From sequence record PZ386972.1: DNA of 64,000 nucleotides; one strand, 5' to 3'. Of this stretch, positions 4,199 through 24,069 are shown piece by piece (within the stretch, counting starts at the first letter, position 1; the number at the start of each line of letters is the position of its first letter). Below the pieces are notes generated by a model. That model searched no databases. It saw only the letters and a list, made by a program, of their open reading frames with translations, and was not told the origin of the DNA. The stretch comes from a phage. The position numbers and the translations under genes were made by a program.

Positions 4199-4215
4199 CG
4201 GAGAATTATTTAAAA

Positions 4216-5592: not shown

Positions 5593-5611
5593 TACAGGCT
5601 TTTCAGCCGAT

Positions 5612-5640: not shown

Positions 5641-5651
5641 GGGAAAAATAA
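5636..5651 (+). other. conserved post-terminator motif TTATTGGGAAAAATAA, copy 1, abutting ATG at 5652
   Basis: near-identical copies at 10641-10658 and 14372-14389. Confidence 0.5.
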
Positions 5652-6931: not shown

Positions 6932-6934
6932 TAA

Positions 6935-7420
6935 ATGGACCACAGAACAAGTATTGCACAAGCTATGGTTGACCGAATCTCTAAACAAATGGATGGTTCT
7001 CAACCTGACGAATATTTTAATAATCTATACGGAAACGTTTCTCGTCAAACTTATAAATTTGAGGAAATACGAGAGTTTCCTTATGTAGCAGTTCATATCG
7101 GAACTGAAACTGGGCAGTATCTTCCTTCAGGCCAACAGTGGATGTTTTTAGAACTTCCAATCCTGGTGTACGATAAAGAGAAAACAGACATTCAAGAGCA
7201 ACTTGAAAAACTCGTAGCGGATATAAAAACCGTTATTGACACAGGTGGAAATTTAGAATATACTGTTAGTAAACCTAATGGATCGACCTTCCCATGTGAG
7301 GCAACTGATATGATCATTACATCAGTTAGTACAGATGAGGGTCTACTGGCCCCATATGGTTTAGCAGAAATAAATGTAACAGTGAGGTATCAGCCTCCAC
7401 GTAGGTCACTTCGCAGATAA
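6935..7420 (+). CDS. tail completion / terminator protein (putative)
   Basis: 161-aa ORF immediately upstream of tail tube gene; synteny only. Confidence 0.4.
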   Translation: MDHRTSIAQAMVDRISKQMDGSQPDEYFNNLYGNVSRQTYKFEEIREFPYVAVHIGTETGQYLPSGQQWMFLELPILVYDKEKTDIQEQLEKLVADIKTVIDTGGNLEYTVSKPNGSTFPCEATDMIITSVSTDEGLLAPYGLAEINVTVRYQPPRRSLRR

Positions 7421-7446
7421 GTTACAGATTAGGAGAAAATAATTAA

Positions 7447-8841
7447 ATGTCTTTACAACTATTACGTAATACTCGAATCTTCGTGTCTACGGTTAAGACT
7501 GGTCATAATAAGACCAACACGCAAGAGATTCTAGTTCAGGATGATATTTCTTGGGGTCAGGACAGTAACTCAACAGATATTACTGTTAATGAGGCTGGTC
7601 CGCGTCCAACTCGTGGTTCTAAACGTTTTAACGACTCTTTAAACGCAGCTGAGTGGAGTTTCTCTACCTATATCCTGCCATATAAAGACAAAACTACTAA
7701 CAAACAAATTGTTCCTGACTATATGTTATGGCATGCACTTTCTAGTGGTAAAGCTATTAACCTAGAAGGTAATACGGGGGCACACAATAACGAAGCTAAC
7801 TTTATGGTTAACTTCAAAGATAACTCTTATCACGAGTTAGCAATGTTACACATTTATATTCTGACTGATAAAGCATGGAGTTATATCGATTCCTGTCAGA
7901 TTAATCAAGCAGAAGTTAACGTTGATATTGAAGATATTGGCCGTGTAACTTGGTCTGGTAATGGTAATCAGCTTATTCCTCTGGATGAGCAACCATTTGA
8001 CCCAGATGAAATAGGTATTGATGATGAAACTTACATGACTATCCAGGGTTCTTACATCAAGAACAAATTAACGATCCTTAAGATCAAGGACATGGATACC
8101 AATAAGTCTTACGACATACCAATTACCGGTGGTACTTTTACTATTAACAACAACATTACTTATCTAACACCTAATGTAATGTCCCGTGTTACTATTCCAA
8201 TTGGTTCCTTTACTGGTGCTTTTGAATTAACTGGTTCATTAACTGCTTATCTGAATGATAAATCTCTTGGTTCTATGGAACTGTATAAAGATCTTATCAA
8301 AACTCTGAAGGTAGTTAACCGCTTCGAAATAGCTCTAGTACTTGGTGGCGAGTATGAGGATGAACGTCCTGCAGCTATTCTGGTAGCCAAACAAGCGCAC
8401 GTTAATATTCCTACGATTGAGACTGATGATGTACTTGGTACATCAGTAGAGTTTAAGGCTATTCCGTCAGAGCTGGATGCAGGTGATGAGGGTTACTTAG
8501 GCTTCTCTAGTAAGTATACCAAAACAACTATTAATAACTTGATTGTTAATGGTAATGGTGCTACTGATGCTGTAACTGCAATTACTGTTAAATCTGCTGG
8601 TAATGTTACTACAGTAAACACTTCTGCCACTCTTCAGATGAGTGTTGAAGTTACTCCTTCTTCCGCAGAGAATAAGGAAGTTACTTGGGCTATCACTGCT
8701 GGTGATGCAGCTACTATCAGTGCAACAGGATTACTAAAAGCAGATGTTAGTAAAACTGGTGCAGTAACTGTAGAAGCTACTGCTAAAGATGGTTCTGGAG
8801 TTAAAGGCACTAAACAGATTACTGTAACAGCAGGTGGTTAA
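7447..8841 (+). CDS. tail tube protein with C-terminal Ig-like (Big_2-like) domain (pb6-like)
   Basis: 464-aa ORF; C-terminal TAITVKSAGNVTT...VTVEATAKDGSG...ITVTAGG Ig-like segment; RBS AGGAGAAAA upstream. Confidence 0.75.
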   Translation: MSLQLLRNTRIFVSTVKTGHNKTNTQEILVQDDISWGQDSNSTDITVNEAGPRPTRGSKRFNDSLNAAEWSFSTYILPYKDKTTNKQIVPDYMLWHALSSGKAINLEGNTGAHNNEANFMVNFKDNSYHELAMLHIYILTDKAWSYIDSCQINQAEVNVDIEDIGRVTWSGNGNQLIPLDEQPFDPDEIGIDDETYMTIQGSYIKNKLTILKIKDMDTNKSYDIPITGGTFTINNNITYLTPNVMSRVTIPIGSFTGAFELTGSLTAYLNDKSLGSMELYKDLIKTLKVVNRFEIALVLGGEYEDERPAAILVAKQAHVNIPTIETDDVLGTSVEFKAIPSELDAGDEGYLGFSSKYTKTTINNLIVNGNGATDAVTAITVKSAGNVTTVNTSATLQMSVEVTPSSAENKEVTWAITAGDAATISATGLLKADVSKTGAVTVEATAKDGSGVKGTKQITVTAGG

Positions 8842-8845
8842 TTAA

Positions 8846-9742
8846 ATGTTTTATTCTCTCATGCGAGAGTCTAAAATAGTTATTGAGTATGATGGTAGAG
8901 GGTATCATTTCGATGCCCTCTCTAACTATGATGCTAGTACGTCTTTTCAAGAGTTCAAAACTCTTAGACGTACTATTCATAATCGTACCAACTATGCAGA
9001 CTCTATTATTAATGCTCAAGATCCTTCATCTATTTCATTGGCAATAAATTTCAGTACTACGCTTATTGAATCTAATTTCTTTGATTGGATGGGATTCACG
9101 CGTGAGGGAAATTCTTTATTTTTGCCAAGAAATACTCCCAATATTGAACCTATTATGTTCAATATGTATATTATTAATCATAATAATAGCTGTATTTATT
9201 TCGAAAACTGTTATGTATCAACAGTTGATTTTTCTTTAGATAAAAGTATACCGATCCTAAATGTTGGTATTGAGTCTGGAAAATTCTCTGAAGTATCTAC
9301 TTTCCGCGATGGATATACAATTACACAAGGTGAAGTACTTCCATATAGTCCTCCAGCTGTGTATACTAATAGCGCGCCATTGCCCGCATTAATTTCAGCA
9401 TCTATGTCCTTCCAGCAACAATGTTCTTGGAGAGAAGATAGAAGTATATTTGATATAAATAAAGTTTATACTAATAAACGAGCTTATGTCAATGAGATGA
9501 ATGCTTCCGCAACGCTAGCTTTCTATTACGTTAAGAGATTGGTAGGAGATAAGTTCTTGAATCTAGACCCTGAAACAAGAACTCCACTAATTATTAAAAA
9601 TAAATATGTTTCTATAACATTCCCTTTAGCACGTATTTCAAAACGCCTAAACTTCTCAGATTTGTATCAGGTAGAGTATGATGTAATACCAACTGCTGAT
9701 TCAGATCCTGTAGAAATAAACTTCTTTGGAGAAAGAAAATAA
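8846..9742 (+). CDS. tail-associated hypothetical protein
   Basis: 298-aa ORF between tail tube and chaperone genes. Confidence 0.45.
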   Translation: MFYSLMRESKIVIEYDGRGYHFDALSNYDASTSFQEFKTLRRTIHNRTNYADSIINAQDPSSISLAINFSTTLIESNFFDWMGFTREGNSLFLPRNTPNIEPIMFNMYIINHNNSCIYFENCYVSTVDFSLDKSIPILNVGIESGKFSEVSTFRDGYTITQGEVLPYSPPAVYTNSAPLPALISASMSFQQQCSWREDRSIFDINKVYTNKRAYVNEMNASATLAFYYVKRLVGDKFLNLDPETRTPLIIKNKYVSITFPLARISKRLNFSDLYQVEYDVIPTADSDPVEINFFGERK

Positions 9743-10146
9743 TGATTAACTTAAAAGATATTACTCTAGAAACTCGTACGGTCACCCTTTCATACCCAGG
9801 TATGCCTAACTTTAAGCTAGAGCTTAATTATATGTCTCGTGCTACTTCTAAGCGAGTTATCACTTCTGCTAAGCGTGACGAGTGGGTTAACGGTACTTTG
9901 ATTCAGGTACAGGATGATGATAAGTTCATTGAAGCCTTCGTTGATGCTGCGATTAAAGGTTGGACTGGTTTGACTGTAGGTGACGTTGAAAAACTGATGC
10001 TGATTGAAACAGATGCTGATCCTGCTACGGAAGTTCCATTTAGTCGTGATAATGCTGTAATGCTTATGCAGAATTCTGCTGCGTTTGATTCTTGGATCAA
10101 CCAGACAGTGTTCCACTTAGACACTTTTCGTAGCTCAAAAGCGTAA
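9742..10146 (+). CDS. tail assembly chaperone (putative, gpG-like position)
   Basis: 134-aa acidic ORF two genes upstream of tape measure gene. Confidence 0.4.
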   Translation: MINLKDITLETRTVTLSYPGMPNFKLELNYMSRATSKRVITSAKRDEWVNGTLIQVQDDDKFIEAFVDAAIKGWTGLTVGDVEKLMLIETDADPATEVPFSRDNAVMLMQNSAAFDSWINQTVFHLDTFRSSKA

Positions 10147-10207
10147 AGAATTACTAGATGCTGTTGCTGATTTTGCAGATAAATGTATTAAAAGCTCAGC
10201 ATCTAAA

Positions 10208-10576
10208 ATGACTAAACAACAATATTTAATACTTTGTGAATCAATGGGTATAGAGCCTGATCCTAAGGCTATGCCTGTTGAACTTGAAGACTTTCCACCT
10301 ATTGTAGCTATTAGTATGAATATTTATAATAGTCTAATTGACTGTTTCATACCGGGTGACTTTCCTATTTTTATAGGTAAAGACAAAGCTGCTTTAGGTG
10401 TTTTATTTGATATTTATGGGATTACTGATCCTATAGAAAAAGAATTTGTTCTACACATTATCAATATATTTGATGCTAAAGCTGTAGATGCTGCACGTAA
10501 ACGTGCTGAGAAGCATAAACCGCAAAACGGAAGGATTCCTAACGTTAAGCCACATGCTAAATCTCGAGCACGGTAA
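10208..10576 (+). CDS. hypothetical protein in chaperone position upstream of tape measure
   Basis: 122-aa ORF; basic C-terminus; no obvious frameshift link to previous ORF. Confidence 0.4.
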   Translation: MTKQQYLILCESMGIEPDPKAMPVELEDFPPIVAISMNIYNSLIDCFIPGDFPIFIGKDKAALGVLFDIYGITDPIEKEFVLHIINIFDAKAVDAARKRAEKHKPQNGRIPNVKPHAKSRAR

Positions 10577-10611
10577 AAGTTTCCTCCAATGGGCGTTCCA
10601 CGATGAGGCTT

Positions 10612-10642
10612 GGCTCTGGGTGATTTGCCCAGAGCCTTTTTT
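10612..10642 (+). terminator. rho-independent terminator upstream of tape measure gene
   Basis: GGCTCTGGG-tgatttg-CCCAGAGCC hairpin followed by TTTTTT. Confidence 0.75.
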
Positions 10643-10658
10643 ATTGGGAAAAATAAAA
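10641..10658 (+). other. conserved post-terminator motif TTATTGGGAAAAATAAAA, copy 2, abutting ATG at 10660
   Basis: same motif as 5636-5651. Confidence 0.5.
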
Positions 10659-10659
10659 C

Positions 10660-13600
10660 ATGACTGATAAGCTAATACGAGAACTACTAATAGACGTTAA
10701 ACAGAAGGGGGCAACTCGTACTGCAAAGTCTATTGAAAACGTATCTGATGCGTTAGAAAACGCTGCTGCTGCTTCCGAACTGACAAATGAGCAGTTAGGT
10801 AAAATGCCCAAAACCCTTTACTCCATTGAGAGGGCAGCGGATAGAGCAGCGAAAAGTCTTACTAAAATGCAAGCAAGCCGAGGTATGCTTAGTGTTACTA
10901 AATCTATAAATGATATAGGAGCTAAGTTAGATGATCTTGCTATCCAACTTATTGAAGTAACAGATAAGCTAGAAATTGGATTCGATGGAGTTTCTAGATC
11001 TGTTAAAGCAATGGGTAATGATGTTGCAGCTGCAACAGAGAAAGTTCAAGATAGATTGTATGACACCAATAGAGTTTTAGGCGGTACAGCTAGAGGTTTT
11101 AATGATACTGCTGGTGCCGCTGGTAGAGCTTCTAGAGCTATTGGTAATACTTCTGGTTCAGCGCGTGGTGCAACTCGTGATTTTGCAGCAATGGCTAAGA
11201 TCGGTGGTAGTTTACCTATTATGTACGCAGCCCTTGCTTCCAACATCTTCGTTTTGCAATCTGCATTTGAACAACTTAAACTAGGTGATCAGCTAAATCG
11301 TCTAGAAAAATTTGGTGTTATAGTAGGTACTCAGACAGGTACTCCTGTTCAGACCCTTGCTAGATCACTACAAGAAGCTGCTGGATATGCTATTTCTTTT
11401 GAGGAAGCAATGAGACAGGCATCTTCAGCATCTGCTTATGGATTTGATGCCGAACAACTTAATAAATTTGGTTTAGTAGCTCGTCGTGCGGCTGCTGTTC
11501 TTGGCGTTGATATGACTGATGCACTTAACCGTGTAATTAAGGGCGTATCTAAACAAGAAATCGAACTTCTGGATGAACTTGGTGTCACCATTCGTCTTAA
11601 TGACGCATATGCTGATTATGTTAAACAGTTAAACGCTGCAAACACAGGTATAACATATAATATTAATAGCCTTACTACCTTCCAGAAACAGCAAGCATAC
11701 GCTAACGCGGTAATTGCTGAATCTACTAAGCGGTTTGGCTACCTAGATGAAGTACTACGTGCAACTCCATGGGAGCAATTTGCTGCTAATGCAGATGCTG
11801 CACTAAGAAAAATACAACAAGCTGCTGCCAAGTATTTAGGGCCAGTAATTGATGCTATCAACACAGTATTTTATACATCTCAGGCTTCTATATCTGCTGA
11901 GGCAGCTAGAGCTCAAGAAAAAACTAATAGACAGATAGATCCTAATAATGTAGGTGCTGTTGCTTTAAGTTTAGCTGCTTCTGAAGAAGGCTATAATAAA
12001 GCTCTAGATATGTATAAGGAATCTCTTGATAAGCGTAATAAGCTAAAATCTGAGTTCGATAAACGAATGGAACAGGCAGATTTCTATACAAAACTAGCTA
12101 TACGTCAAGTTGGTGAAGGTATTCCTGTTGGTCTTGCAGCAGCAGGTGCTTCGGAGGCCAATAAGCAATTTGTAGCAGAAACTGCAGCTATGGGTCTACA
12201 AGTAACTAGACTTGGTAAGGAAGTAGAGGATTCTACAGAGAATCTCAATGCTTGGAAATCAGCGTATCAAGCTGCTGGGGCTGCTGCTGCAAAGGCTAGT
12301 CCAGAGTTTCAGAAGCAAATTAATCTCCAGAGAGATACTACTGATCCTGATGCTGTATACGATTTTAACTCTACTGTATTAAAAGGACTAACTGAGCAGC
12401 AGAAAGCGTACAATCAGACTAAGAAAACTGCTAGTGACTTAGCTAATGACTTTCAAAATATAGCTAGTAGCACAGATACTGCTGCTAAAACCAGTGCAAC
12501 TTTTGAAGAGGTAATTAAAAACATATCGTCTCTATCCGCAGGAACTGGTAAGAGTGCTGATGATTATGTTAAAAGCCTCAACTTAGGGTTTAACACTCTG
12601 TCTGAAATGAAAACTGCGTCTCAGGCCTTATCTGAGTACGTTAAACTAACTGGTAATGAGACTAAGAACCAGTTAGCAGTTCAACAGAAGATAGCGGATG
12701 TATATAACCAAACTAAGGATAAAGAAAAAGCACAGGAAGCTGGTAGACGTTTAGAGTTGCAACAGTTAGAAGAGCAAGAAACTGCTTTACGCCGTGTTCT
12801 TCAAACAAACCAGGGAAATAAAGCTGTTGAGAAAGAAATTGAAAAAATTCAGCTGGAGAAACTTAAACTTACCAATCAAGGTATGGAAGCTCAGAAGAAG
12901 GTCAAGAATTACACAGATAAAATTCTTGGTGTAGATCGTGAGATAGCTCTCTTAAATAACCGTACTATGACAGATACTCAGTATCGTCTAGCACAGTTAA
13001 ATCTTGAATTGACCATTGAAAAAGAGAAGTATGAATGGTATACAAAACAAGCTGATAAACAGAAAGAGGCAGAACAGTCTAGACGTGCTCAAGCCCAAAT
13101 TGAACGTGAAATCTGGAAATTCCGTCAGGATCAGATTGCTTCAATGGCTGCTGGTAGAGAGGAAGAACAGCAAAGACAATTTACTGCTAAACCATTAATG
13201 GGAAATGCGGAGCGCTTACAGGAACAGCTAAAATTATATGAAGACTTAAAGCAGAAAACATTAGGTAATGCTGCGGCACAAGCGGAGTATAATAAAAAGA
13301 TAGCTGAAACTAGGGCACAACTAGCAGGTTTAAGAGCACAGAGAAATGCGGATATGCAAACTTCTGTTGGGTCTTCTTTAGGTGCTGTGTACACTCCTAC
13401 AACTGGGCTATCTGGAGAGGATAAAGATTTTGCTGATATGCAGAATAGGATGTCTTCATATGACCAAGCAATTTCTAAACTATCTGAGTTAAATTCCGAA
13501 GCTACTGCTGTAGCTCAAAGCATGGGTAATTTAACTAATGCTATGATTCAGTTCTCCATGGGATCTTTAGATACTACTTCCACGATCGCAGCAGGTATGC

Positions 13601-14340
13601 AGACTGTAGCCTCTATGATTCAATATAGTACTAGCCAACAAGTTAGTGCAATTGATCAGGCTATTGCAGCAGAACAGAAACGAGATGGTAAATCTGAAGC
13701 CTCTAAAGCTAAACTGAAAAAGTTAGAAGCTGAAAAGTTAAAAATCCAGCAAGATGCAGCTAAGAAACAAATTATTATCCAGACAGCAGTAGCAGTAATG
13801 CAAGCGGCAACAGCTGTACCATACCCGTTCTCTATTCCTTTGATGGTGGCGGCAGGTTTAGCAGGTGCCTTAGCTCTTGCTCAAGCATCTTCTGCGTCTG
13901 GCATGTCTTCTATTGCAGATTCTGGAGCAGATACTACTCAGTATCTAACTCTAGGTGAGCGACAGAAGAACGTTGATGTATCTATGCAAGCTAGTTCAGG
14001 AGAACTATCCTACTTACGTGGTGATAAGGGTATTGGTAATGCCAATTCATTTGTTCCGCGTGCTGAGGGTGGTATGATGTACCCTGGAGTAAGCTATCAA
14101 ATGGGTGAGCATGGTACCGAAGTAGTAACTCCTATGGTTCCTATGAAAGCCACACCTAATGATCAGCTTTCCGATGGATCAAAGACTACCTCTGGAAGAC
14201 CAATCATTCTGAATATTAGCACAATGGATGCTGCTAGCTTTAGAGATTTTGCATCGAATAATAGCACTGCTTTAAGAGATGCCGTGGAACTGGCTCTTAA
14301 TGAGAATGGATCCACCCTTAAATCTCTTGGTAATATGTAA
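10660..14340 (+). CDS. tail tape measure protein (pb2-like)
   Basis: 1226-aa ORF, largely alpha-helical/coiled-coil with Ala/Gln-rich low complexity and hydrophobic segment near C-terminus. Confidence 0.85.
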   Translation: MTDKLIRELLIDVKQKGATRTAKSIENVSDALENAAAASELTNEQLGKMPKTLYSIERAADRAAKSLTKMQASRGMLSVTKSINDIGAKLDDLAIQLIEVTDKLEIGFDGVSRSVKAMGNDVAAATEKVQDRLYDTNRVLGGTARGFNDTAGAAGRASRAIGNTSGSARGATRDFAAMAKIGGSLPIMYAALASNIFVLQSAFEQLKLGDQLNRLEKFGVIVGTQTGTPVQTLARSLQEAAGYAISFEEAMRQASSASAYGFDAEQLNKFGLVARRAAAVLGVDMTDALNRVIKGVSKQEIELLDELGVTIRLNDAYADYVKQLNAANTGITYNINSLTTFQKQQAYANAVIAESTKRFGYLDEVLRATPWEQFAANADAALRKIQQAAAKYLGPVIDAINTVFYTSQASISAEAARAQEKTNRQIDPNNVGAVALSLAASEEGYNKALDMYKESLDKRNKLKSEFDKRMEQADFYTKLAIRQVGEGIPVGLAAAGASEANKQFVAETAAMGLQVTRLGKEVEDSTENLNAWKSAYQAAGAAAAKASPEFQKQINLQRDTTDPDAVYDFNSTVLKGLTEQQKAYNQTKKTASDLANDFQNIASSTDTAAKTSATFEEVIKNISSLSAGTGKSADDYVKSLNLGFNTLSEMKTASQALSEYVKLTGNETKNQLAVQQKIADVYNQTKDKEKAQEAGRRLELQQLEEQETALRRVLQTNQGNKAVEKEIEKIQLEKLKLTNQGMEAQKKVKNYTDKILGVDREIALLNNRTMTDTQYRLAQLNLELTIEKEKYEWYTKQADKQKEAEQSRRAQAQIEREIWKFRQDQIASMAAGREEEQQRQFTAKPLMGNAERLQEQLKLYEDLKQKTLGNAAAQAEYNKKIAETRAQLAGLRAQRNADMQTSVGSSLGAVYTPTTGLSGEDKDFADMQNRMSSYDQAISKLSELNSEATAVAQSMGNLTNAMIQFSMGSLDTTSTIAAGMQTVASMIQYSTSQQVSAIDQAIAAEQKRDGKSEASKAKLKKLEAEKLKIQQDAAKKQIIIQTAVAVMQAATAVPYPFSIPLMVAAGLAGALALAQASSASGMSSIADSGADTTQYLTLGERQKNVDVSMQASSGELSYLRGDKGIGNANSFVPRAEGGMMYPGVSYQMGEHGTEVVTPMVPMKATPNDQLSDGSKTTSGRPIILNISTMDAASFRDFASNNSTALRDAVELALNENGSTLKSLGNM

Positions 14341-14346
14341 TATTGG

Positions 14347-14374
14347 AGGAGGACTTTATGTCCTCCTTTTCTTT
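14347..14374 (+). terminator. rho-independent terminator after tape measure gene
   Basis: AGGAGGAC-tttat-GTCCTCCT hairpin followed by TTTTCTTT. Confidence 0.75.
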
Positions 14375-14389
14375 ATGGAAAAATAAAAA
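14372..14389 (+). other. conserved post-terminator motif TTTATGGAAAAATAAAAA, copy 3
   Basis: same motif family as 5636 and 10641. Confidence 0.45.
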
Positions 14390-14393
14390 TTTC

Positions 14394-14422
14394 TTGATAA
14401 AATTTTCCAATACTATTATAAT
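14394..14422 (+). promoter_or_regulatory. sigma70-consensus promoter (TTGATA, 17 bp, TATAAT) inside late operon, upstream of distal tail gene
   Basis: hexamers and spacing read directly; followed by AAAGAGGAGAAA RBS and ATG at 14450. Confidence 0.55.
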
Positions 14423-14449
14423 ATTGTTATTAAAGAGGAGAAATTAACT

Positions 14450-15064
14450 ATGAGACTACCAGATCCATACACGAACCCAGAATACCCAGGGTTAGGTTTT
14501 GAAAGCGTCAACGTAGTAGATAATGACCCTATGATTCGTGATGAATTACCTAATGGTAAAGTCAAAGAGGTTAAAATATCTGCTCAATACTGGGGAATTA
14601 ATATCTCATACCCGGAACTTTTCCCAGATGAATATGCGTTCCTAGATTCTAAAATTTTAGAATATAAAAGAACTGGAGATTATCTAGAAGTACTTCTACC
14701 TCAGTATGAAGCATTTAGAGTACGTGGTGATACTAAAAGTGTTAATATACCAGCAGGACAGAAAGGTTCCCAGATTATACTAAATACTAATGGAACCTTA
14801 ATAGGACTACCAAAAGCTGGAGACCTATTTAAGTTATCCAGTCACCCAAAAGTCTATAAAATAACAAACTTTACTAGCTCAGGAAATGTATGGAGCTTAT
14901 CCCTATACCCTGACCTATTTATTACTACTACGGGTAGTGAAAAACCAGTTTTTAATGGTATCCTATTTAGAACTAAGCTAATGAATGCTGATTCTTTTGG
15001 TTCTACATTAAATAACAATGGTACTTACTCTGGTATTTCACTTTCCTTGAGGGAAAGTCTATGA
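14450..15064 (+). CDS. distal tail protein (Dit, pb9-like)
   Basis: 204-aa ORF directly downstream of tape measure, upstream of large baseplate protein. Confidence 0.55.
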   Translation: MRLPDPYTNPEYPGLGFESVNVVDNDPMIRDELPNGKVKEVKISAQYWGINISYPELFPDEYAFLDSKILEYKRTGDYLEVLLPQYEAFRVRGDTKSVNIPAGQKGSQIILNTNGTLIGLPKAGDLFKLSSHPKVYKITNFTSSGNVWSLSLYPDLFITTTGSEKPVFNGILFRTKLMNADSFGSTLNNNGTYSGISLSLRESL

Positions 15065-17910
15065 AGCAGATACTCGATAGTGCTAAAACATATCTTAATA
15101 CTCATGACAAGCTAAAAACAGCTTGTCTTATAGCTTTAGAGCTTCCTAGCTCATCTGGTTCCGCAGCTACTTATATATACCTGACAGACTATTTTAGAGA
15201 TGTTACATATAATGGTATTTTGTACAGATCAGGTAAAGTAAAAAGTATAAGCTCTCATAAACAGAATCGTCAATTATCTATTGGTAGCTTATCTTTTACA
15301 ATAACTGGTACAGCAGAAGATGAAGTATTAAAACTAGTTCAAAATGGGGTATCTTTCTTAGATAGAACTATTACTATACATCAAGCGATAATTGATGAAG
15401 AAGGAAATATTCTTCCAGTAGATCCTAGTACAGACGGCCCTTTATTATTCTTCCGTGGTAGAATTACCGGAGGTGGAATAAAAGATAATGTTACTACTTC
15501 AGGGATAGGAACCTCTGTTATCACATGGAACTGTTCCAACCAGTTCTATGACTTTGATAGGGTGAATGGTCGTTATACCGATGATGCTTCTCATCGAGGA
15601 CTTGAAGTTGTTAATGGACAATTACAGCCTTCTAATGGGGCTAAACGTCCTGAATATCAAGAAGACTATGGATTCTTCCACTCTAATAAAAGTACCACTA
15701 TCTTAGCTAAGTATCAAGTAAAAGAAGAACGCTATAAACTTCAGTCCAAGAAGAAACTTTTTGGGCTATCAAGAAGTTACAGTCTTAAAAAGTATTATGA
15801 GACTGTAACTAAAGAAGTTGATTTAGACTTTAACTTAGCTGCTAAATTTATACCTGTTGTATATGGGGTTCAGAAAATTCCTGGTATACCTATTTTTGCA
15901 GATACTGAGCTAAATAACCCTAATATAGTGTATGTAGTCTATGCTTTTTCGGAAGGAGAAATCGATGGATTCCTAGATTTCTATATTGGGGACAGCCCAA
16001 TGATCTGTTTCGATGAAATGGATTCCAATGCTAGAACCTGCTTCGGTCGTAAGAAACTAGTGGGTGATACAATGCATAGACTAGCTGCTGGTACAAGCAC
16101 GTCTCAACCTTCTGTTCATGGTCAGGAGTATAAGTATAATGATGGTAATGGTGACATAAGAATATGGACTTTTCATGGAAAACCAGACCAGACAGCAGCT
16201 CAAGTATTAGTGGATATTGCTAAAAGAAAAGGTTTCTATTTACAGAATCAAAATGGCAATGGACCAGAATACTGGGATTCTCGTTATAAGCTCTTAGACA
16301 CAGCCTACGCTGTAGTTAGATTTACTATTAATGAGAATAGAACTGAAATTCCAGAAATTAGTGCTGAAGTACAAGGTAAGAAAGTCAAAGTATATAGTTC
16401 TGACGGTACTGTAAAAGCAGATAAAACTAGTCTAAATGGTATCTGGCAACTTATGGATTACCTGACTTCAGATCGTTACGGGGCTAATATAACTCTAGAC
16501 CAGTTCCCTCTACAAAAGATTGTATCAGAAGCAAAAATACTTGATATAATTGATGAGTCCTATCAGGTTAGTTGGCAACCTTACTGGCGTTACGTTGGAT
16601 GGAGTGATTCTATATCTGAACATCGTCAAGTAGTTCAATTAAACACCATACTAGATACTTCTGAATCAGTTTTTAAAAACGTTCAAGGTATATTAGAATC
16701 ATTTGGTGGGGCTATAAATAACCTGTCAGGTGAGTATAGGATAACAGTAGAAAAACATTCTACAACTCCACTAAAAATAGGTTTTCTAGACACTTATGGT
16801 GACTTAGACTTATCTGATACTACTGGTAGAAATAAATTTAACTCAGTACAAGCATCCCTAGTAGACCCTGCGCTAAGTTGGAAAACAAACTCTATTACAT
16901 TCTATAACTCTAAGTTTAAAGAACAAGATAAGGGTCTGGATAAAAAACTTCAGCTATCTTTTGCAAATATTACTAACTACTATACTGCTAGGAGTTACGC
17001 AGATAGAGAACTTAAGAAATCTAGATACTCCCGTACTTTAAGTTTTTCTGTACCATATAAATTTATAGGTATAGAGCCTAACGATCCTATTGCTTTCACA
17101 TATGAACGTTATGGCTGGAAAGATAAATTCTTCCTGGTTGACGAAGTAGAAAATACTCGTGATGGTAAAATTAATCTAGTCCTCCAAGAGTATGGAGAAG
17201 ATGTATTTATTAATTCCGAGCAGGTAGATAATAGTGGTAATGATATTCCTGATATTAGTAATAACGTTCTACCTCCTAGAGACTTTAAGTACACTCCTAC
17301 TCCAGGTGGCGTAGTTGGTGCTATAGGCAAAAATGGGGAACTATCTTGGCTACCTAGTCTTACTAATAACGTAGTATATTATTCTATAGCTCATTCAGGT
17401 CATGTAGATCCTTACATAATTCAGCAATTAGAGAATAATCCTAATGAAAGGATGATTCAGGAGATTATAGGTGAGCCTGCTGGTTTAGCTATTTTTGAAC
17501 TACGTGCTGTTGATATTAATGGTAGACGTAGCTCTCCTGTTACTCTTTCCGTGGATCTTAACTCTGCTAGAAACTTGAGTGTAGTTAGTAACTTCAGAGT
17601 AACTAATACAGCTTCTGGAGATGTAACCGAATTTGTTGGTCCAGATGTGAAACTTGCTTGGGATAAGATACCTGAGGAAGAAATAATTCCAGAAATCTAT
17701 TACACTCTAGAAATACATGATTCTCAGGATAGAATGCTTCGTAGTATTAGGATAGAGGATGCCTATACCTATGACTATCTATTAACATATAATAAGGCGG
17801 ATTTTGCACTATTAAACTCCGGTGCTTTAGGAATTAATCGTAAACTACGATTTAGGATTAGAGCAGAGGGGGAAAATGGTGAGCAATCTGTTGGTTGGGC
17901 TACTATTTAA
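15061..17910 (+). CDS. baseplate hub / tail tip protein (pb3-like)
   Basis: 949-aa ORF, start overlaps Dit stop; size and position. Confidence 0.65.
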   Translation: MKQILDSAKTYLNTHDKLKTACLIALELPSSSGSAATYIYLTDYFRDVTYNGILYRSGKVKSISSHKQNRQLSIGSLSFTITGTAEDEVLKLVQNGVSFLDRTITIHQAIIDEEGNILPVDPSTDGPLLFFRGRITGGGIKDNVTTSGIGTSVITWNCSNQFYDFDRVNGRYTDDASHRGLEVVNGQLQPSNGAKRPEYQEDYGFFHSNKSTTILAKYQVKEERYKLQSKKKLFGLSRSYSLKKYYETVTKEVDLDFNLAAKFIPVVYGVQKIPGIPIFADTELNNPNIVYVVYAFSEGEIDGFLDFYIGDSPMICFDEMDSNARTCFGRKKLVGDTMHRLAAGTSTSQPSVHGQEYKYNDGNGDIRIWTFHGKPDQTAAQVLVDIAKRKGFYLQNQNGNGPEYWDSRYKLLDTAYAVVRFTINENRTEIPEISAEVQGKKVKVYSSDGTVKADKTSLNGIWQLMDYLTSDRYGANITLDQFPLQKIVSEAKILDIIDESYQVSWQPYWRYVGWSDSISEHRQVVQLNTILDTSESVFKNVQGILESFGGAINNLSGEYRITVEKHSTTPLKIGFLDTYGDLDLSDTTGRNKFNSVQASLVDPALSWKTNSITFYNSKFKEQDKGLDKKLQLSFANITNYYTARSYADRELKKSRYSRTLSFSVPYKFIGIEPNDPIAFTYERYGWKDKFFLVDEVENTRDGKINLVLQEYGEDVFINSEQVDNSGNDIPDISNNVLPPRDFKYTPTPGGVVGAIGKNGELSWLPSLTNNVVYYSIAHSGHVDPYIIQQLENNPNERMIQEIIGEPAGLAIFELRAVDINGRRSSPVTLSVDLNSARNLSVVSNFRVTNTASGDVTEFVGPDVKLAWDKIPEEEIIPEIYYTLEIHDSQDRMLRSIRIEDAYTYDYLLTYNKADFALLNSGALGINRKLRFRIRAEGENGEQSVGWATI

Positions 17911-19995
17911 ATGATTTCAAATAATGCACCAGCTAAAATGGTCCTAAATAGCGTCTTAACTGGATATACGTTGGCGTATATCCAGCATTCTATCTACTCT
18001 GATTATGACGTTATAGGCAGGTCTTTTTGGCTTAAAGAAGGTAGCAACGTTACTCGTAGAGATTTTACTGGGGTTGATACCTTCTCTGTAACTATTAATA
18101 ACCTAAAACCTACAACAACTTATGAAGTTCAGGGTGCATTTTATGATTCTATAATAGACTCTGAACTGCTTAATGCTCAGATAGGTATTAATCTATCTGA
18201 TAAACAAACTTTTAAAATGAAATCAGCACCTAGAATTACAGGTGCTAGGTGTGAATCAGAGCCTGTAGACGTAGGTGTTGGAGCGCCAATAGTTTATATA
18301 GATACTACAGGAGAAGCTGATTATTGTACTATAGAATTAAAAAATAATTCTAATGCTAATAATCCGTGGGTTAAATATTACGTTGGTGCACTAATGCCAA
18401 CTATTATGTTCGGTGGCGTGCCAATCGGATTCTATAAAGTAAGAATTTCTGGTCAAATAAGCCTACCAGACGGTGTTACTATTGATTCATCTGGATACTA
18501 TGAGTATCCTACTGTCTTTGAAGTTAATTATAATTTTGTTCCTCCTACCGCACCCACTAATATTGAGTTTAAAGCAGCGCGCATTGCAGACGGTAAAGAA
18601 CGCTATGATTTACGTGTGCAATGGGATTGGAATAGAGGCACAGGTGCTAACGTTCGTGAATTCGTTCTATCTTATATAGCTTCAGCAGAATTTGCTAGAA
18701 CTGGATGGACTAAGGCACAAAAAATCAACGTGGGGGCTGCTCAGTCGGCAACAATTATATCATTCCCATGGAAAGTAGAGCATAAATTTAAAGTGTCATC
18801 TATTGCTTGGGGACCAGGTGCTCAAGATGTTATCGATTCCGCAGTACAGACATTTATGCTAAAGGAGGATACTCCACTAGATAACAGTTTTGTAAATGAA
18901 ACTGGTATTGAAGTAAACTACGCGTACATTAAAGGCAAGATCAAAGATGGTTCTACCTGGAAACAAACCTTCTTAATAGATGCTGCCACCGGTGCTATTA
19001 ATATAGGTCTTCTAGATGCTGAAGGAAAAGCACCAATATCTTTTGACCCTATTAAAAAGATAGTTAACGTTGATGGAAGTGTAATAACTAAAACTATTAA
19101 CGCTGCTAACTTTGTCATGACTAATTTAACCGGTCAAGATAACCCAGCAATTTATACTCAAGGCAAAACTTGGGGTGATACAAGATCTGGTATCTGGATG
19201 GGTATGGATAATGCTACTGCTAAACCAAAACTGGATATTGGCAATGCTACCCAGTACATTCGTTACGACGGTGATACATTAAGAATCTCTAGTGGGGTTG
19301 TAATTGGTACACCTAACGGTGACATCGATATAGCAACAGGTATACAAGGTAAGCAAACAGTGTTTATCTATATTCTAGGAACCTCACTACCTGCTAAGCC
19401 TACAAGCCCTGCATATCCACCTTCAGGTTGGTCAAAAACTCCACCTAATAGAACATCTAATACTCAAAATATTTACTGTTCTACAGGTACCTTAGATCCT
19501 GTTACTAATCAATTAGTATCTGGAACTAGTTGGTCAGATGTGGTTCAATGGAGTGGTACAGAAGGTGTTGATGGTAGGCCAGGAGCTGATGGAAAACCAG
19601 GGACAGACGGACAACGTGGTCCTGGAATGTATTCTCTTGCTATTGCAAATTTAACCGCATGGAATGATTCTCAGGCTAATTCGTTTTTTACGTCTAACTT
19701 TGGTACTGGTCCTGTTAAATATGATGTATTAACCGAGTATAAAAGTGGGGCACCAGGAACAGCGTTTACTAGACAGTGGAATGGTTCAGCATGGGCTAGC
19801 CCTGCAATGGTTTTACATGGTGATATGATAGTTAATGGTACAGTAACTGCTAGTAAAATTGTTGCTAATAACGCTTTCTTATCACAAATTGGTGTAAATA
19901 TTATATATGATCGTGCAGCAGCACTATCCTCTAATCCAGAGGGATCTTACAAAATGAAGATAGACCTGCAAAACGGGTATATCCATATAAGGTAA
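17911..19995 (+). CDS. tail tip protein with collagen-like Gly-X-Y stretch (pb4-like)
   Basis: 694-aa ORF; [21 protein letters not shown] motif; ATG overlaps previous stop. Confidence 0.6.
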
Positions 19996-19999
19996 AATA

Positions 20000-20422
20000 A
20001 TGAGTACAGAAAATAGAGTTATTGATTTAGTAGTAGACGAAAACGTACCTTATGGTTTACTTATGCAATTTATGGATGTAGATGATAGTGTTTATCCTGC
20101 TACATCTAAGCCAGTAGATCTTACTGGCTTCTCTCTTAGAGGAAGTATTAAAAGTAGTTTAGAAGATGGGGCTGAAAATTTAGCATCTTTTACTACATCT
20201 ATTATTGATGCGAATCAAGGAGTAGCATCCATAAGTCTACCTGTTAGTGCCGTAACTACTATTGCATCTAAAGCATCCAAAGAAAGGGACAAGTATAACC
20301 CTAGACAAAGGCTAGCTGGATACTATGATGTTATAATTACTAGAACAGCCGTTGGTAATGCTGCTAGCTCTTTCCGTATTATGGAAGGCAAAGTTTATAT
20401 TAGCGATGGGGTAACTCAATAA
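20000..20422 (+). CDS. collar / fibre attachment protein (putative)
   Basis: 140-aa ORF between tail tip protein and long fibre gene. Confidence 0.45.
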
Positions 20423-23400
20423 TGGCTATAACTAAAATAATCTTACAACAAATGGTCACCATGGACCAAAATAGTATAACTGCAAGTAAATATCCTAAGT
20501 ATACGGTTGTACTTTCTAATTCCATTAGCTCTATTACAGCAGGAGAACTAACTGCCGCTATAGAATCCTCTAAAGCTTCTGCTGCAGCAGCTAAACAATC
20601 TGAGATTAATGCTAAGCAGTCAGAGTTAAATGCCAAAGATTCTGAGAATGAGGCAGAAATTTCTGCAGCATCTTCCCAGCAATCTGCAACTCAGTCTGCT
20701 TCTTCTGCTACTGCTTCTGCTAATAGTGCTAAAGCTGCAAAAACTTCAGAAACCAATGCAAAAGCTAGTGAGACGGCTGCAAAAACTTCAGAAACCAATG
20801 CAAAAGCTAGTGAAACAGCAGCTAAAACTTCTGAGACCAATGCTAATAGTAGCAAAACTGCTGCTGCTGCATATGCTTCCGCAGCAAAAACCTCAGAAAC
20901 TAATGCTGCTGCATCTGCTTCTGCCGCTAAAACTTCTGAAACTAACGCTAATAGTAGTAAAACTGCTGCTGCTAACAGTGCTAATGCTGCTAAAGTATCA
21001 GAAACTAATGCTAAAACTTCGGAAACTAATGCAGCTGCTTCAGCTACTAAAGCTGAAAATGTAGCTTCCGGCATGAGAGATTCTATAGGCCTAGGTAATT
21101 CAGCTCGTGATTGCCCAGATATTTCTGGTAATCCTTCTGCATACATTGGTTTTATGCGTATTCGTGAAGGTGTGCCTGGATGGCCTTCTATTGCTGATGG
21201 GGAGGCGTATTTAACTGGTGTTATTTCTGCTAATGACGGTTCTCCTTCCTACACTGGTATTTTTCAGGGATGGGGTAGTCGCTCATTATACACGTATCGT
21301 TGGGCAAGCAATCTAGGCCCTCAATGGACACGTCACGCTCGTAAAGACGAGGTAAATAGACTTGTACAGATAGCGAATGACCAAACTAGATTATATGCTG
21401 GCAATGGTACTACATACATAGAAGTGGGCAATAATAGGGCTTGGGGAGTATATGACTCTGTACTCAATAAGTGGCAACCGCTGGCTATAGCTCAGGGCGG
21501 TACAGGTGGAATTACAGATATAGAGGCACGTACCAACCTGAGACTGGGGGTAAACGATAGCCCACAATTTGCAAACCTTAATCTTGTAAGATCTTCAGAT
21601 GTAGCAACTACGGCAGGAGGTATTCTACAAAGCATCCTCAGTGATACAACAGGGGTGCAGAGGACACGCTGCCGCTTTTACTCAGAATTACGTGGTGATG
21701 ATAAAGCATGGGGAACTATTCATCTTCAAAAAGGTGACAAAAATCAATATGCTGGATTAAATGAGGACGGAGACTTCTCTCTAAATAGTGGAGATTTTAT
21801 TGGTAGAAGAGTAAAATTAAGTGCCAATTTTAGTTATCCAGTAGAGATAACAAGTGCTCATCCTACTATCAGATTCAACGAAAGTGATCGTCCAGCAAAT
21901 ACACCTTATTACAGCTTTGTTTTTGACGGAGGTAATTGGCGTATCCAAAAAGACGGTTATGACGGTACAAAAAGTAGTAATGCTATTAGCTATAACTATG
22001 CAAGGGATGAAATAGAAATTCCAAATCTCAAGGTTAATGCTATTGCCACCCCCGTAAATCTTACACAGACAAAAACAAATCTGCAAATACCATTTACTGG
22101 TTTAGCTCGTTGGACTGATTATAATGCTCCTGCAGGAGCTGAAGCTAAAAAATATTATCCTGTAATTATAAGCCATCCATTATACTACAATGGTGATTTC
22201 CTTGTTGAAGTTGCTATGAGAACTAAATCTATAACTGGAAGTGAGGAACCTAACTGTAATGCTATTCATTTATGGATTAGAGATGCTGGATGGTCTGACA
22301 TGGGTGCAGCAGTATTTGGTCACTATTTCTGCTATGCTAAAAACGAAAATGCTATCCTATGTGTTCGAGGTACTGATAAGGGTCAGTATCCTCATAATGC
22401 AATTTATGTTCGCGGAGACGCTTTTCCTATTAGGCTTGCTACAACTGTTGGTTGCATTGTAACCATACCTACATCTGACTGGAAGCCTTCAACTGCAGCA
22501 GATAGTCCTACATACAAATGGGGTATCTCAAACTCAGGAGAGGGTATTGATCTTGATACCTACGGCATCAGTAATAATTTGCTTGATTTTACAGCAAGTG
22601 CAACAGGATTTTATTGTACTGATACATACCGCAATAAATATGGTGATTCCTACCAAGTAATATCGGCAAATGGCACCATCCAGCCAGCTAATGGCGTTGC
22701 AACATACTTAAATCAAGATTGGAACACTCAGCATACAGATGGAGTAAATAAGTTTAAACCTATTGCTGGACAAGTAAACTCACCGGAAAATGGAATTGTT
22801 TATGCCGGTTTTCACACCAGTTTTAGTGAAAGTTATGCTACCCAACTTGCAGGACGTAATTCTAGATTCTGGGTAAGAAGTATTGAAGCTGGGGAAAGTA
22901 AAGAATGGTTAAAACTTATTACTGCTACATTAGCTCCTAAAATTCCTACAGATGCACGAGATGGTTTCATCAGTGATAACGCAGGAGACACCTCTTGGGC
23001 TCCTAGCAATGGTGGGGGCTTTCAGGCTAGTTATGCCGAAAACCGCATTATGCAGAGCTGGATTGATAGTGCTGGAAGATTATACAGCAGATTTCTAACA
23101 ACTAATCAGCCTACAACTTCGAAAACGGATGTTCCCTGGAAAAGTGCTGCGATGCTAGAGCTGGATAACCGCTTTACTGGTAATAATACCTTTATTGGGG
23201 ATATTTTATGTAGCGCTTCAAACCCACTTACTCTTAAGTCTGCAAATCCTACGTTATCCTTTGTGGAGTCTGACGTAGATAACTCTACATACATGTTTGT
23301 AGCAGATGGTGGTGGTTTTAGGCTTAATATGGACAATACTGGAGGTGCGGAAATATTTAACTACAGCCGTTCCCAGAATAATCTTAAACTTGGTGTAAGT

Positions 23401-24069
23401 TCTTATTTTACTCTAAATACTAGATTTGATCAGGGATGGACATCTAGAGGTTCTGTAGATGTAACTACTACGGGGTATAGTACCGTTACTATTACTACAA
23501 CATCCTCAACTAATGGTGTTGGTGCACGTAACCAATTTGAGGTTAACCCGAGTACTAATCAGTTCTACTTAGCTAGACGTAATAGGAGCGACCTTACAGG
23601 GCAATGGATCATAAATTTCCCTTCAGCTGGCGGTACTCTAGCACTTAGTGGTACATCAGATATTAACTATAAGACTAATATAGAAGAATACGATGGTATT
23701 CATTCCATAGAAAATATTAAGGCTATGGATCTTGTTACTTTTGTATTTAAGGACGATGAGAAAAAACGTACTCGCAGAGGGGTTATTGCTCAGCAAATCG
23801 AGCAAATAGATCCTACATACGTTAAACATACATATGAACCATGCGGGGAACCTATTGTTGATGATGATGGGATCATTCAAGGGTATACTGATACAAAAGA
23901 AAGGGTTGTTTTAGATAATAACGTACTTTTACTAGATGCACTGTGTGCCATAAAAGTACTAGCACAACGTGATGAGGAGAAAACTGAACGTATTAATAAA
24001 CTTGAGAAAGATGTAGAAGATTTGAAAACTGTAGTAGAGCATTTATTGACTACTATGAAAAATAGTTAA
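20422..24069 (+). CDS. L-shaped tail fibre with C-terminal intramolecular chaperone (S74-like autoprocessing) domain
   Basis: 1215-aa ORF; N-terminal tandem AKTSETNAKASET repeats; C-terminal GTSDINYK...IAQQIEQIDPTYV...coiled coil typical of auto-cleaved chaperone domains. Confidence 0.8.
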   Translation: MAITKIILQQMVTMDQNSITASKYPKYTVVLSNSISSITAGELTAAIESSKASAAAAKQSEINAKQSELNAKDSENEAEISAASSQQSATQSASSATASANSAKAAKTSETNAKASETAAKTSETNAKASETAAKTSETNANSSKTAAAAYASAAKTSETNAAASASAAKTSETNANSSKTAAANSANAAKVSETNAKTSETNAAASATKAENVASGMRDSIGLGNSARDCPDISGNPSAYIGFMRIREGVPGWPSIADGEAYLTGVISANDGSPSYTGIFQGWGSRSLYTYRWASNLGPQWTRHARKDEVNRLVQIANDQTRLYAGNGTTYIEVGNNRAWGVYDSVLNKWQPLAIAQGGTGGITDIEARTNLRLGVNDSPQFANLNLVRSSDVATTAGGILQSILSDTTGVQRTRCRFYSELRGDDKAWGTIHLQKGDKNQYAGLNEDGDFSLNSGDFIGRRVKLSANFSYPVEITSAHPTIRFNESDRPANTPYYSFVFDGGNWRIQKDGYDGTKSSNAISYNYARDEIEIPNLKVNAIATPVNLTQTKTNLQIPFTGLARWTDYNAPAGAEAKKYYPVIISHPLYYNGDFLVEVAMRTKSITGSEEPNCNAIHLWIRDAGWSDMGAAVFGHYFCYAKNENAILCVRGTDKGQYPHNAIYVRGDAFPIRLATTVGCIVTIPTSDWKPSTAADSPTYKWGISNSGEGIDLDTYGISNNLLDFTASATGFYCTDTYRNKYGDSYQVISANGTIQPANGVATYLNQDWNTQHTDGVNKFKPIAGQVNSPENGIVYAGFHTSFSESYATQLAGRNSRFWVRSIEAGESKEWLKLITATLAPKIPTDARDGFISDNAGDTSWAPSNGGGFQASYAENRIMQSWIDSAGRLYSRFLTTNQPTTSKTDVPWKSAAMLELDNRFTGNNTFIGDILCSASNPLTLKSANPTLSFVESDVDNSTYMFVADGGGFRLNMDNTGGAEIFNYSRSQNNLKLGVSSYFTLNTRFDQGWTSRGSVDVTTTGYSTVTITTTSSTNGVGARNQFEVNPSTNQFYLARRNRSDLTGQWIINFPSAGGTLALSGTSDINYKTNIEEYDGIHSIENIKAMDLVTFVFKDDEKKRTRRGVIAQQIEQIDPTYVKHTYEPCGEPIVDDDGIIQGYTDTKERVVLDNNVLLLDALCAIKVLAQRDEEKTERINKLEKDVEDLKTVVEHLLTTMKNS
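20734..21040 (+). repeat. tandem 42-bp (14-aa) repeats within fibre N-terminus
   Basis: two near-identical units at about 20734-20775 and 20776-20817 followed by degenerate copies; produces spurious low-complexity ORFs on other frames. Confidence 0.7.

Follow-up and report, generated by a model that had tools for sequence, protein, structure and literature searches.

The tandem 42-bp repeats in the long tail fibre gene of this phage are very probably the DNA footprint of a heptad coiled-coil rod, the length of which varies by whole heptads. The DNA analysed is a 64,000-nucleotide stretch of phage sequence (record PZ386972.1; referred to here as the window), and a preliminary description of it had placed the repeats in the N-terminal shaft of a tail fibre, a location that proved correct, both as to the tail fibre gene and as to the shaft. 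The repeats have a fundamental period of 21 bp (7 amino acids) in the register A-x-x-S-x-x-x, and 25 such heptads follow one another without interruption (20548..21072, plus strand; aa 43–217), forming the predicted proximal coiled-coil rod of the fibre. Heptad coiled-coil repeats in a tail fibre are a real and already known kind of feature.

Identity of the fibre gene

The gene carrying the array (20422..24069, plus strand; 1215 aa) is assigned from its sequence to the L-shaped, or lateral, tail fibre (pb1/LtfA family) of a T5-like phage, because of its gene order, its C-terminal domain, its match to a known structure, and its high nucleotide identity to annotated fibres. The gene order pb4-ltfC-ltf in the window is the same as in annotated relatives. 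The pb4 (straight fibre) ORF at 17911–19995, with four PB4 Pfam domains, precedes the collar protein gene ltfC (p132; 20000..20422, plus strand; Pfam PF23926 LtfC, E=9.5e-16), the stop codon of which shares one base with the start codon of the fibre gene (TAATG). The fibre is held at its N-terminus by the LtfC collar. A phmmer search against PDB matched fibre aa 4–215 and aa 1049–1195 to DT57C LtfA (8hqz_d, E=2e-58), with fibre aa 4–215 aligned to DT57C LtfA 5–209 and the strongest likeness in aa 4–56. Residues 1–42 (20422..20547, plus strand) are strongly similar to DT57C LtfA aa 5–43 and, by analogy, are the putative anchor inserting into the LtfC collar. At the other end of the protein, an intramolecular chaperone domain of the Peptidase_S74 type (aa 1079–1134; 23656..23823, plus strand; Pfam PF13884, E=3.8e-12) is predicted to be self-cleaving. 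The long tail fibre genes of the Salmonella phages Kenya-K44, vB_StyS-LmqsSP1, PS3-1, and SCF are 93–95% identical to that of the window at the nucleotide level across the whole gene.

DT57C LtfA and T5 pb1 share with the window the position behind pb4 and ltfC and a strongly similar collar-binding N-terminus. They also have in common with it a helix that begins at the residue equivalent to T40, a heptad array of the SE(T/L/I)N type, and an S74 domain at the C-terminus. However, DT57C-type arrays consist mostly of other heptad sequences, with only one or two AKxSExx units, and neither T5 nor DT57C has a distal receptor-binding part related to that of the window fibre. In addition, the window has a single fibre gene, whereas DT57C has both LtfA and LtfB. 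Three further ORFs at 20630–21064 (plus strand), 20691–21146 (minus strand), and 20400–20636 (minus strand) were rejected as genes, being Leu/Ala-rich out-of-frame readings; they are other frames of the array or of the neighbouring fibre-coding DNA.

The heptad array and the predicted rod

Heptad position 1 is occupied by Ala in 20 of the 25 heptads and position 4 by Ser in 22. Residue autocorrelation over aa 43–217, evaluated against 2000 composition-preserving shuffles, gave z = 7–10 at lags of 7, 14, 21, 28, and 35, and values at or below expectation at every other lag. AlphaFold2 modelling of the monomer from the single sequence, with no alignment, produced one continuous helix spanning aa 40–220, with pLDDT >90 across approximately aa 60–200 (~140 residues) and no helix before aa 40. 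Cryo-EM analysis of DT57C LtfA revealed that its N-terminal part consists of β-strands augmenting the LtfC sheets and that a helix begins at T40; this helix acts as a trimerisation domain and leaves the LtfC pocket as a three-helix coiled coil, and the map resolves only the start of the helical bundle (PMC10713586). The array sequences of DT57C and the window differ past approximately aa 100. The core positions in the window are filled by the small residues Ala and Ser, without the Leu, Ile, or Val of a textbook coiled coil; therefore, the sequence alone does not fix the oligomeric state, and it is by analogy with the DT57C cryo-EM structure that the whole array is predicted to be trimeric.

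The lack of large hydrophobic residues at the core positions and an Ala+Ser+Thr content of 63% (111 of 175 residues; the preliminary description had rightly called the segment Ala/Ser/Thr-rich) could also point to an unstructured linker of that composition, or to a β-structured fibre repeat such as a triple β-helix or a collagen-like repeat, in place of a helical rod. Such a structure is highly improbable, given the strict 7-residue periodicity maintained without a stutter for 175 residues, the confident prediction of a continuous helix, and the homologue's cryo-EM density, which is a three-helix bundle. Moreover, there is no Gly/Pro periodicity, and an hmmscan search of the fibre protein against Pfam at E<=0.1 detected no collagen-like or fibre-repeat profile, Peptidase_S74 being the sole match. 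The segment had been labelled as low-complexity, which is apt for its composition, but it also follows the strict heptad pattern of a coiled coil, which had gone unrecognised.

Each 21-bp unit encodes seven residues with the consensus A-K-T-S-E-T-N, in which Ala fills one core position and Ser the other, and in the proposed helical rod 25 heptads without a stutter would form one long α-helix (aa ~40–220). Three of these helices would assemble into a parallel three-helix coiled-coil rod with a predicted length of ~26 nm, constituting the proximal arm of the L-shaped fibre and joining the collar-buried anchor (aa 1–42) to the distal, β-rich receptor-binding part and the S74 chaperone. Regarding the register, a spontaneous deletion of one residue (A198) in DT57C LtfA abolished adsorption (PMC4728585). 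Alignment to the window fibre maps A198 into the repeat region, and by analogy the heptad register may matter for function.

Repeats at the DNA level

Three tandem 42-bp units are found at 20737..20862 (plus strand), the first two being near-perfect copies that encode AKTSETNAKASETA twice, and the third a degenerate copy (AKTSETNANSSKTA). Direct comparison showed that unit 1 (20737–20778) and unit 2 (20779–20820) are identical at 39 of 42 bases, with unit 3 (20821–20862) matching at 31 of 42, and the longest exact direct repeat at an offset of 42 is 38 bp (20734–20771 = 20776–20813). Tandem Repeats Finder reported four overlapping arrays, including period-42 arrays at 20733–20843 (2.6 copies, 89% matches, score 180) and 20855–20949 (2.3 copies, 83% matches) and a period-105 array at 20821–21012 (1.8 copies, 81% matches, score 270); arrays with a period of 21 underlie all those of longer period. 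A higher-order repeat of 105 bp (5 heptads) is present in two copies at 20821..21030 (plus strand), identical at 76 of 105 positions. These results agree with the preliminary description as to two near-perfect and several degenerate 42-bp copies; the encoded unit is, however, 14 and not 13 amino acids long, and the range given there (20734–21040) covers the AKTSETN-rich part of an in-register array that extends more widely, from 20548 to 21072.

Copies other than the near-perfect pair are 66–83% alike. The heptad AKTSETN occurs six times in five DNA spellings, and comparison of the nine canonical heptads counted 101 codon pairs with synonymous differences against 34 with amino-acid differences. 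These synonymous-site differences suggest that selection acts on the AKTSETN heptads at the peptide level. The four Salmonella phage relatives named above (K44, LmqsSP1, PS3-1, and SCF) have the 25 heptads of the window in unchanged order, and their differences are point substitutions; for example, one core position carries Tyr in the window (AAAYASA) and Ser in the four relatives (AAASASA). In the window, the first AKTSETN is spelled like the second, creating the 38-bp exact repeat, whereas the corresponding exact runs in the relatives are only 18–24 bp, and therefore it is the peptide, not DNA identity, that is conserved.

Length variation among relatives

Copy number was compared across relatives, and invariance in all of them was not found. 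Approximately 18 of the 21 phages with both flanks have an array of the same length as the window, including the four nearest relatives, which have an identical heptad count. In Stp1, precisely one 42-bp AKTSETNAKASETA unit (2 heptads) is missing at the near-perfect tandem; its genome is a draft multi-contig assembly, and an assembly error is conceivable as the source of the deletion. BF23 is shorter than the window by 147 bp (7 heptads), leaving 18, and SP01 is longer by 231 and 42 bp (13 extra heptads, for 38 in all). Each measured indel is a whole multiple of 21 bp and ends on repeated heptads, a pattern as expected from unequal recombination or slippage. Among T5-like arrays, ~8 heptads are present in L024, 18 in BF23, 22 in SE11/L001, 23 in T5 pb1 (versus 25 in the window), and ~50 in L028. 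These counts, drawn from loci beside ltfC plus GenBank phages, come from arrays inspected by eye only; an automatic heptad walker overran the rod end in the window (29 versus 25 heptads) and, in some DT57C-like arrays, was halted prematurely by stutters. A protein search with aa 1–260 was unusable for copy counts, returning ~1190 unrelated proteins that share the repeat; the motif is thus widespread.

Whole heptads could be gained or lost because the array units are all alike. Unequal recombination or slippage between like units would add or remove entire heptads, and each such event would change the rod by ~1 nm while leaving the helix register intact. Change of fibre rod length by whole repeat units is ordinary for such fibres. 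The earlier suggestion that copy number could vary, and fibre length with it, between isolates is supported by Stp1, BF23, and SP01, but the identical length in ~18 of 21 phages indicates that this is not frequent.

A stronger form of that suggestion is a contingency locus, in which the near-perfect 42-bp units would slip often, so that a single lysate would contain a mixture of fibre lengths as a hedge against differing host surface thickness. The 38-bp exact direct repeat, the loss in Stp1 of precisely one unit at the near-perfect tandem, and exact in-register repeats of 41–65 bp in other T5-like arrays are in keeping with such a locus. On the other hand, most same-flank phages, with all four nearest relatives among them, are equal in length, the same two units in those relatives share only the short exact runs given above, and the array contains only 2.6 copies. 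Furthermore, the one related deep-sequencing study found, an evolution experiment with the Tequintavirus Salten (~400x for the ancestral genome), reported only two C-terminal point mutations in pb1 (10.1101/2024.03.13.584857). The window is a different phage from Salten: the Salten record OZ075147.1 matches only query positions 1–486, at 86.9%, and the window fibre carries D at residue 1157 and K at residue 1178, where Salten pb1 has A and N (10.1101/2024.03.13.584857). Taken together, a contingency locus is considered unlikely, and occasional whole-heptad change in a structural rod is the preferred reading.

Exchange of distal modules within the array

The closest backbone relative, FGS009, is 96.3% identical to the window across positions 1–20000 and remains nearly identical through nt ~20946, after which it carries another distal fibre, with the heptads in register in both phages. 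The crossover point was placed at 20926..20967 (plus strand) from mismatches per 21 nt and from megablast ends: mismatches rise from 0–3 to 7–18 per 21 nt at gene nt ~525–546, and megablast alignments to FGS009/SE11-type fibres stop at query position 549. The AKTSETN heptad at 20926–20946 is the last unit common to the window and these fibres, with divergence from ~20947. Megablast similarity to other T5-like fibres stops at query positions 381, 444, 486, 530, 549, and 591, all within 20737–21051, and the same N-terminus and array precede at least three different distal modules. Homology among the units would let differing distal modules join in register inside the array.

Beyond T5-like phages, the side tail fibres (Stf) of lambda and lambdoid prophages also consist of an N-terminal attachment domain followed by a long coiled coil of AKTSETNAK(A/S)SETA-type heptads, as in the window, and in the Ur-lambda Stf the proximal coiled coil was modelled at residues 102–393 (PMC12617516). 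The attachment domain of the lambdoid Stf is PF08400, in contrast to the LtfC-binding peptide of the window, and the DNA of the lambdoid array has low similarity to that of the window, the longest exact match being 14 nt. The first distal domain past the rod (aa 218–375, GMRDSIGLGN..CPDISGNPS...; 21073..21546, plus strand) also occurs in side tail fibres of lambdoid prophages. BLASTP revealed that the E. coli prophage protein P0012, with a PF08400 N-terminus, is 49% identical over window aa 118–375, which comprises the array end and this first distal domain. DNA matching the distal domain at 69–72% identity is present in 234 of 5426 E. coli genomes; the same search, in which recent prophage transfer was tested, gave no match for the array DNA. 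The tail fibre of the Klebsiella phage GML-KpCol1, a Webervirus (T1-like, Drexlerviridae), contains many tandem copies of an almost identical 14-aa unit (AKTSETNAKASETA/AKTSETNAKASENK), but its N-terminal domain is unrelated to that of the window and the exact shared DNA is only 20 nt. The 14-aa unit is also repeated in the lambdoid Stf PhiR11_1 and in a protein with a YadA_stalk motif. Literature searches for SETNAK/TSETNA-type motif strings, or for tail fibres with heptads and recombination, yielded nothing relevant and no paper naming the motif.

These observations raise the possibility that the array is kept mainly as homology for swapping distal receptor-binding modules, its role as a rod being secondary. 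The change of fibre type within the array in FGS009, the clustering of all megablast ends inside it, the three or more distal modules behind one N-terminus and array, and the presence of the window distal domain after a SETNA array in fibres of lambdoid prophages speak for this explanation. Nevertheless, most differences between copies fall at synonymous sites, contrary to what selection for identical DNA would give, exact DNA shared across families reaches only 14–20 nt, and the E. coli prophage matches leave out the array. Breakpoints would also cluster there if the array were the only structurally tolerated joining place. Hence, maintenance mainly for recombination is a tentative and rather doubtful explanation, and the peptide-level rod remains preferred. 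Exchange inside the array has been demonstrated only among T5-like phages (window versus FGS009), and the low DNA identity would argue against recent exchange events across families. A still more speculative, improbable proposal is that the AKTSETN(A) cassette serves as a register-preserving splice site common to the unrelated T5-like, lambdoid, and T1-like phage families and is partly retained because recombination between any pair of copies would give a chimeric fibre that stays in frame and in register; if true, the coiled coil would double as structural rod and as universal joint in the exchange of host-range modules.

Implications

The heptad rod explains the presence of tandem DNA repeats in a tail fibre gene and the differences in fibre gene length in multiples of 21 bp. 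For annotators and assemblers, both real +/-21n bp variants and spurious ORFs in other frames are to be expected at the array. The finding has practical value for fibre engineering and host-range prediction, as an in-register join after an AKTSETN heptad is a natural template for constructing chimeric T5-like fibres. In the fibre itself, the array marks the natural joint between a conserved collar anchor and interchangeable receptor-binding modules.

The fibre gene and its neighbourhood

The repeats lie within a plus-strand ORF of 1215 aa (20422-24069). The upstream ORFs encode pb4, the straight fibre, with four PB4-specific Pfam domains, and then the collar protein LtfC (PF23926), and the C-terminal end of the fibre ORF carries a Peptidase_S74 intramolecular chaperone domain. 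Among solved structures, the fibre protein matches only LtfA from T5-like phage DT57C (8hqz_d, E=2e-58), the alignment covering aa 4-215 along with the chaperone region at the C-terminus. Over its whole length, the gene shares 93-95% identity with the long tail fibre genes annotated in Salmonella phages Kenya-K44, LmqsSP1, PS3-1 and SCF, and several Tequintavirus genomes are 95-96.5% identical to the window over its initial 20 kb. Therefore, the window belongs to a T5-like phage and the ORF encodes its L-shaped (lateral) tail fibre; the placement of the repeats in the N-terminal part of a tail fibre gene is borne out by the DT57C match and the annotated relatives. The ltfC stop and fibre start codons overlap by one base (TAATG, 20420-20424), an arrangement that suggests translational coupling of collar and fibre. 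Three out-of-frame ORFs overlapping the fibre gene, at 20630-21064 (+), 20691-21146 (-) and 20400-20636 (-) (144, 151 and 78 aa), are almost certainly not genes, being Leu/Ala-rich readings of the repeat or neighbouring fibre-coding sequence in other frames.

DNA repeats and heptad register

Tandem Repeats Finder detected four overlapping arrays in this stretch, with period 42 at 20733-20843 (2.6 copies, 89% matches) and 20855-20949 (2.3 copies, 83%), period 105 at 20821-21012 (1.8 copies, 81%), and period-21 arrays beneath all of these. The best two 42-bp units (20737-20778 and 20779-20820), each encoding the 14-aa AKTSETNAKASETA, are identical at 39/42 positions and, including the preceding GCT codon, share a 38-bp exact run (20734-20771 and 20776-20813). 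The 42-bp tandem repeats noticed in the preliminary description are therefore real, and degenerate copies do accompany the two near-perfect units, a third matching at only 31/42. The protein contains a single, stutter-free register of 25 heptads spanning aa 43-217 (nt 20548-21072), with Ala at position 1 in 20 and Ser at position 4 in 22 of them, and Lys and Glu predominating at positions 2 and 5. Peaks of residue autocorrelation are confined to lags 7, 14, 21, 28 and 35 (z = 7-10 against 2000 shuffles). Thus, the 42-bp and 105-bp repeats are higher-order units, of two and five heptads, of a 21-bp period, and the span first assigned to the repeats, 20734-21040, is rightly located but covers only the two-thirds of the array rich in the consensus heptad AKTSETN. 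One heptad, AAAYASA, has a core Tyr at position 4 (TAT, 20872-20874, aa 151), the counterpart being TCT (Ser) in K44, LmqsSP1, PS3-1, SCF, NBSal005 and SE11; two more distant arrays (loci L009 and L017) have AAAYAAA, so Tyr is tolerated at this position elsewhere.

A predicted coiled-coil rod

An alignment-free AlphaFold2 run on aa 1-330 predicted a single unbroken helix over aa 40-220, with pLDDT >90 over ~140 residues and low-confidence ends. The predicted start is the residue equivalent to T40 of DT57C LtfA. Cryo-EM of DT57C revealed that the N-terminal part of LtfA forms beta-strands augmenting the LtfC sheets and that a helix, the trimerisation domain, begins at T40 and exits the collar as a three-helix coiled coil (PMC10713586); in T5, ~50 N-terminal residues of pb1 were assigned to density within the p132 collar (PMC10038345). 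A spontaneous one-residue deletion at A198 of DT57C LtfA abolished adsorption, and the wild-type sequence restored it (PMC4728585, section 3.4). By the 8hqz_d alignment, A198 falls in the repeat region, and the phenotype fits a register-sensitive helical rod. The array is best explained as the fibre's proximal coiled-coil arm, with an Ala/Ser core atypical for a coiled coil. At ~0.15 nm per residue the arm would be ~26 nm long, presumably trimeric over the full array. The original interpretation as a fibre shaft was essentially right and structurally incomplete, having overlooked the 25-heptad register.

Copy number across relatives

Fibre genes were compared among 28 viral contigs reached via the neighbouring ltfC, GenBank records and a megablast set obtained with fibre gene nt 1-716, which covers both array flanks. 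This span is identical in length in ~18 named phages, and the four nearest relatives share all 25 heptads, in unchanged order. Three phages, Stp1, BF23 and SP01, differ in array length despite sharing both flanks. Relative to the window, the draft assembly of Stp1 lacks 42 bp, precisely one AKTSETNAKASETA unit of the near-perfect tandem, a deletion to be taken as provisional; BF23 is shorter by 147 bp (7 heptads), the missing stretch corresponding to window 20779-20925 and being flanked by AKTSETN heptads; SP01 (locus L002) is longer by 231 bp plus 42 bp (13 heptads in total), and its larger insert is a block duplication that creates a hybrid AKTSENE heptad. All indel sizes are multiples of 21 bp. 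BF23, SE11 and T5 have 18, 22 and 23 heptads, and the inspected T5-like phages range from ~8 (L024) to ~50 (L028). As copy number is not invariant, the proposal that fibre length varies between isolates survives its own test, with such variation occasional rather than rampant. In Escherichia phage HK6 (PP724615.1, hit H162), query nt 1-444 aligns in two pieces across a 633-nt span, which would correspond to a 189-bp (9-heptad) insertion within the array.

Peptide conservation and DNA identity

The six AKTSETN heptads have five distinct DNA spellings, and nine canonical heptads show 101 codon pairs with a synonymous difference versus only 34 with an amino-acid difference. The matching two 14-aa units in the four nearest relatives share exact runs of 18-24 bp only; the window's 38-bp run stems from a first AKTSETN heptad with the DNA spelling of the second, a state common to SE11. 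Judged from these codon patterns, the repeats are kept alike by selection on the peptide, not on DNA identity. A micro-mosaic patch of 42 nt (20716-20757) equals SE11, with 7 differences from K44 and LmqsSP1, and from 20758 the window equals K44 for >80 nt; this switch, at the first AKTSETN heptad, generates the 38-bp exact repeat.

The array as a crossover zone

Crossovers between fibre types also fall within the array. The backbone of FGS009 is one of those closest to the window (96.3% over window 1-20000). Its fibre gene shows 0-3 mismatches per 21 nt until gene nt ~525, rising to 7-18 from window nt ~20947, directly after the AKTSETN heptad at 20926-20946; beyond this point the heptad register is kept into an SE11-type distal fibre (1358 aa). 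The megablast similarity of other T5-like fibres stops at query 381, 444, 486, 530, 549 or 591, all within 20737-21051, and at least three unrelated distal modules follow the same N-terminus and array. Such breakpoints might reflect selection of the array as a recombination joint, or the array might just be the one site at which modules can be joined homologously without harm to the structure.

The published or deposited record already covers where the LtfA coiled coil begins and shows that T5-like fibres join a conserved N-terminus to a variable distal part; it also describes pb1 coiled-coil domains of different lengths, that of BD13 being longer (Salten preprint). The tail fibre gene of Salmonella phage bobsandoy (Epseptimavirus; L034) carries depositor repeat_region features (1031-1070, 1525-1563 and 1643-1703), so annotators had noticed such repeats before. 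Neither the AKTSETN heptad by name nor heptad counts across T5-like phages were found in the literature searched, which is a descriptive gap and not a new kind of system. The array is a real, correctly located feature, known in kind and of modest interest as a finding.

The heptad motif beyond T5-like phages

A protein search with aa 1-260 yielded ~1190 proteins at E<1e-5, mostly not T5-like. E. coli prophage proteins carry a SETNA heptad array between a lambda-type fibre N-terminus (PF08400) and the window's distal domain; in one search hit, P0012, BLASTP aligned aa 118-375 (array end and distal domain) at 49% identity. The first post-rod domain (21073-21546, aa 218-375) also occurs in the lambda-type side tail fibres that E. 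coli prophages encode. Among complete E. coli genomes, 234/5426 match ~21100-21354 at 69-72% DNA identity, the proteins there being labelled prophage tail fibre or S74 peptidase; this genome DNA search matched the distal domain only, not the array. Many tandem AKTSETNAKASETA-like units occur in a lambdoid Stf (PhiR11_1) and a Klebsiella Webervirus tail fibre. P0002 (400 aa) has a YadA_stalk motif, characteristic of trimeric autotransporter adhesins, and then a long run of tandem AKASETAAQTAETN copies, nearly the 14-aa unit of the phage fibre. Another hit, P0001, a 362-aa partial protein from a 1279-bp contig labelled Enterococcus faecalis by NCBI, is almost identical to the T5 pb1 N-terminus, T5's own heptad array included, and is probably phage contamination of that assembly. 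The array DNA matches 509 phage records, and the longest exact run shared outside T5-like phages is only 14-20 nt. Given this wide spread among proteins and the short exact DNA matches, the heptad motif is a widely used element of fibre coiled coils whose conservation is at the peptide level.
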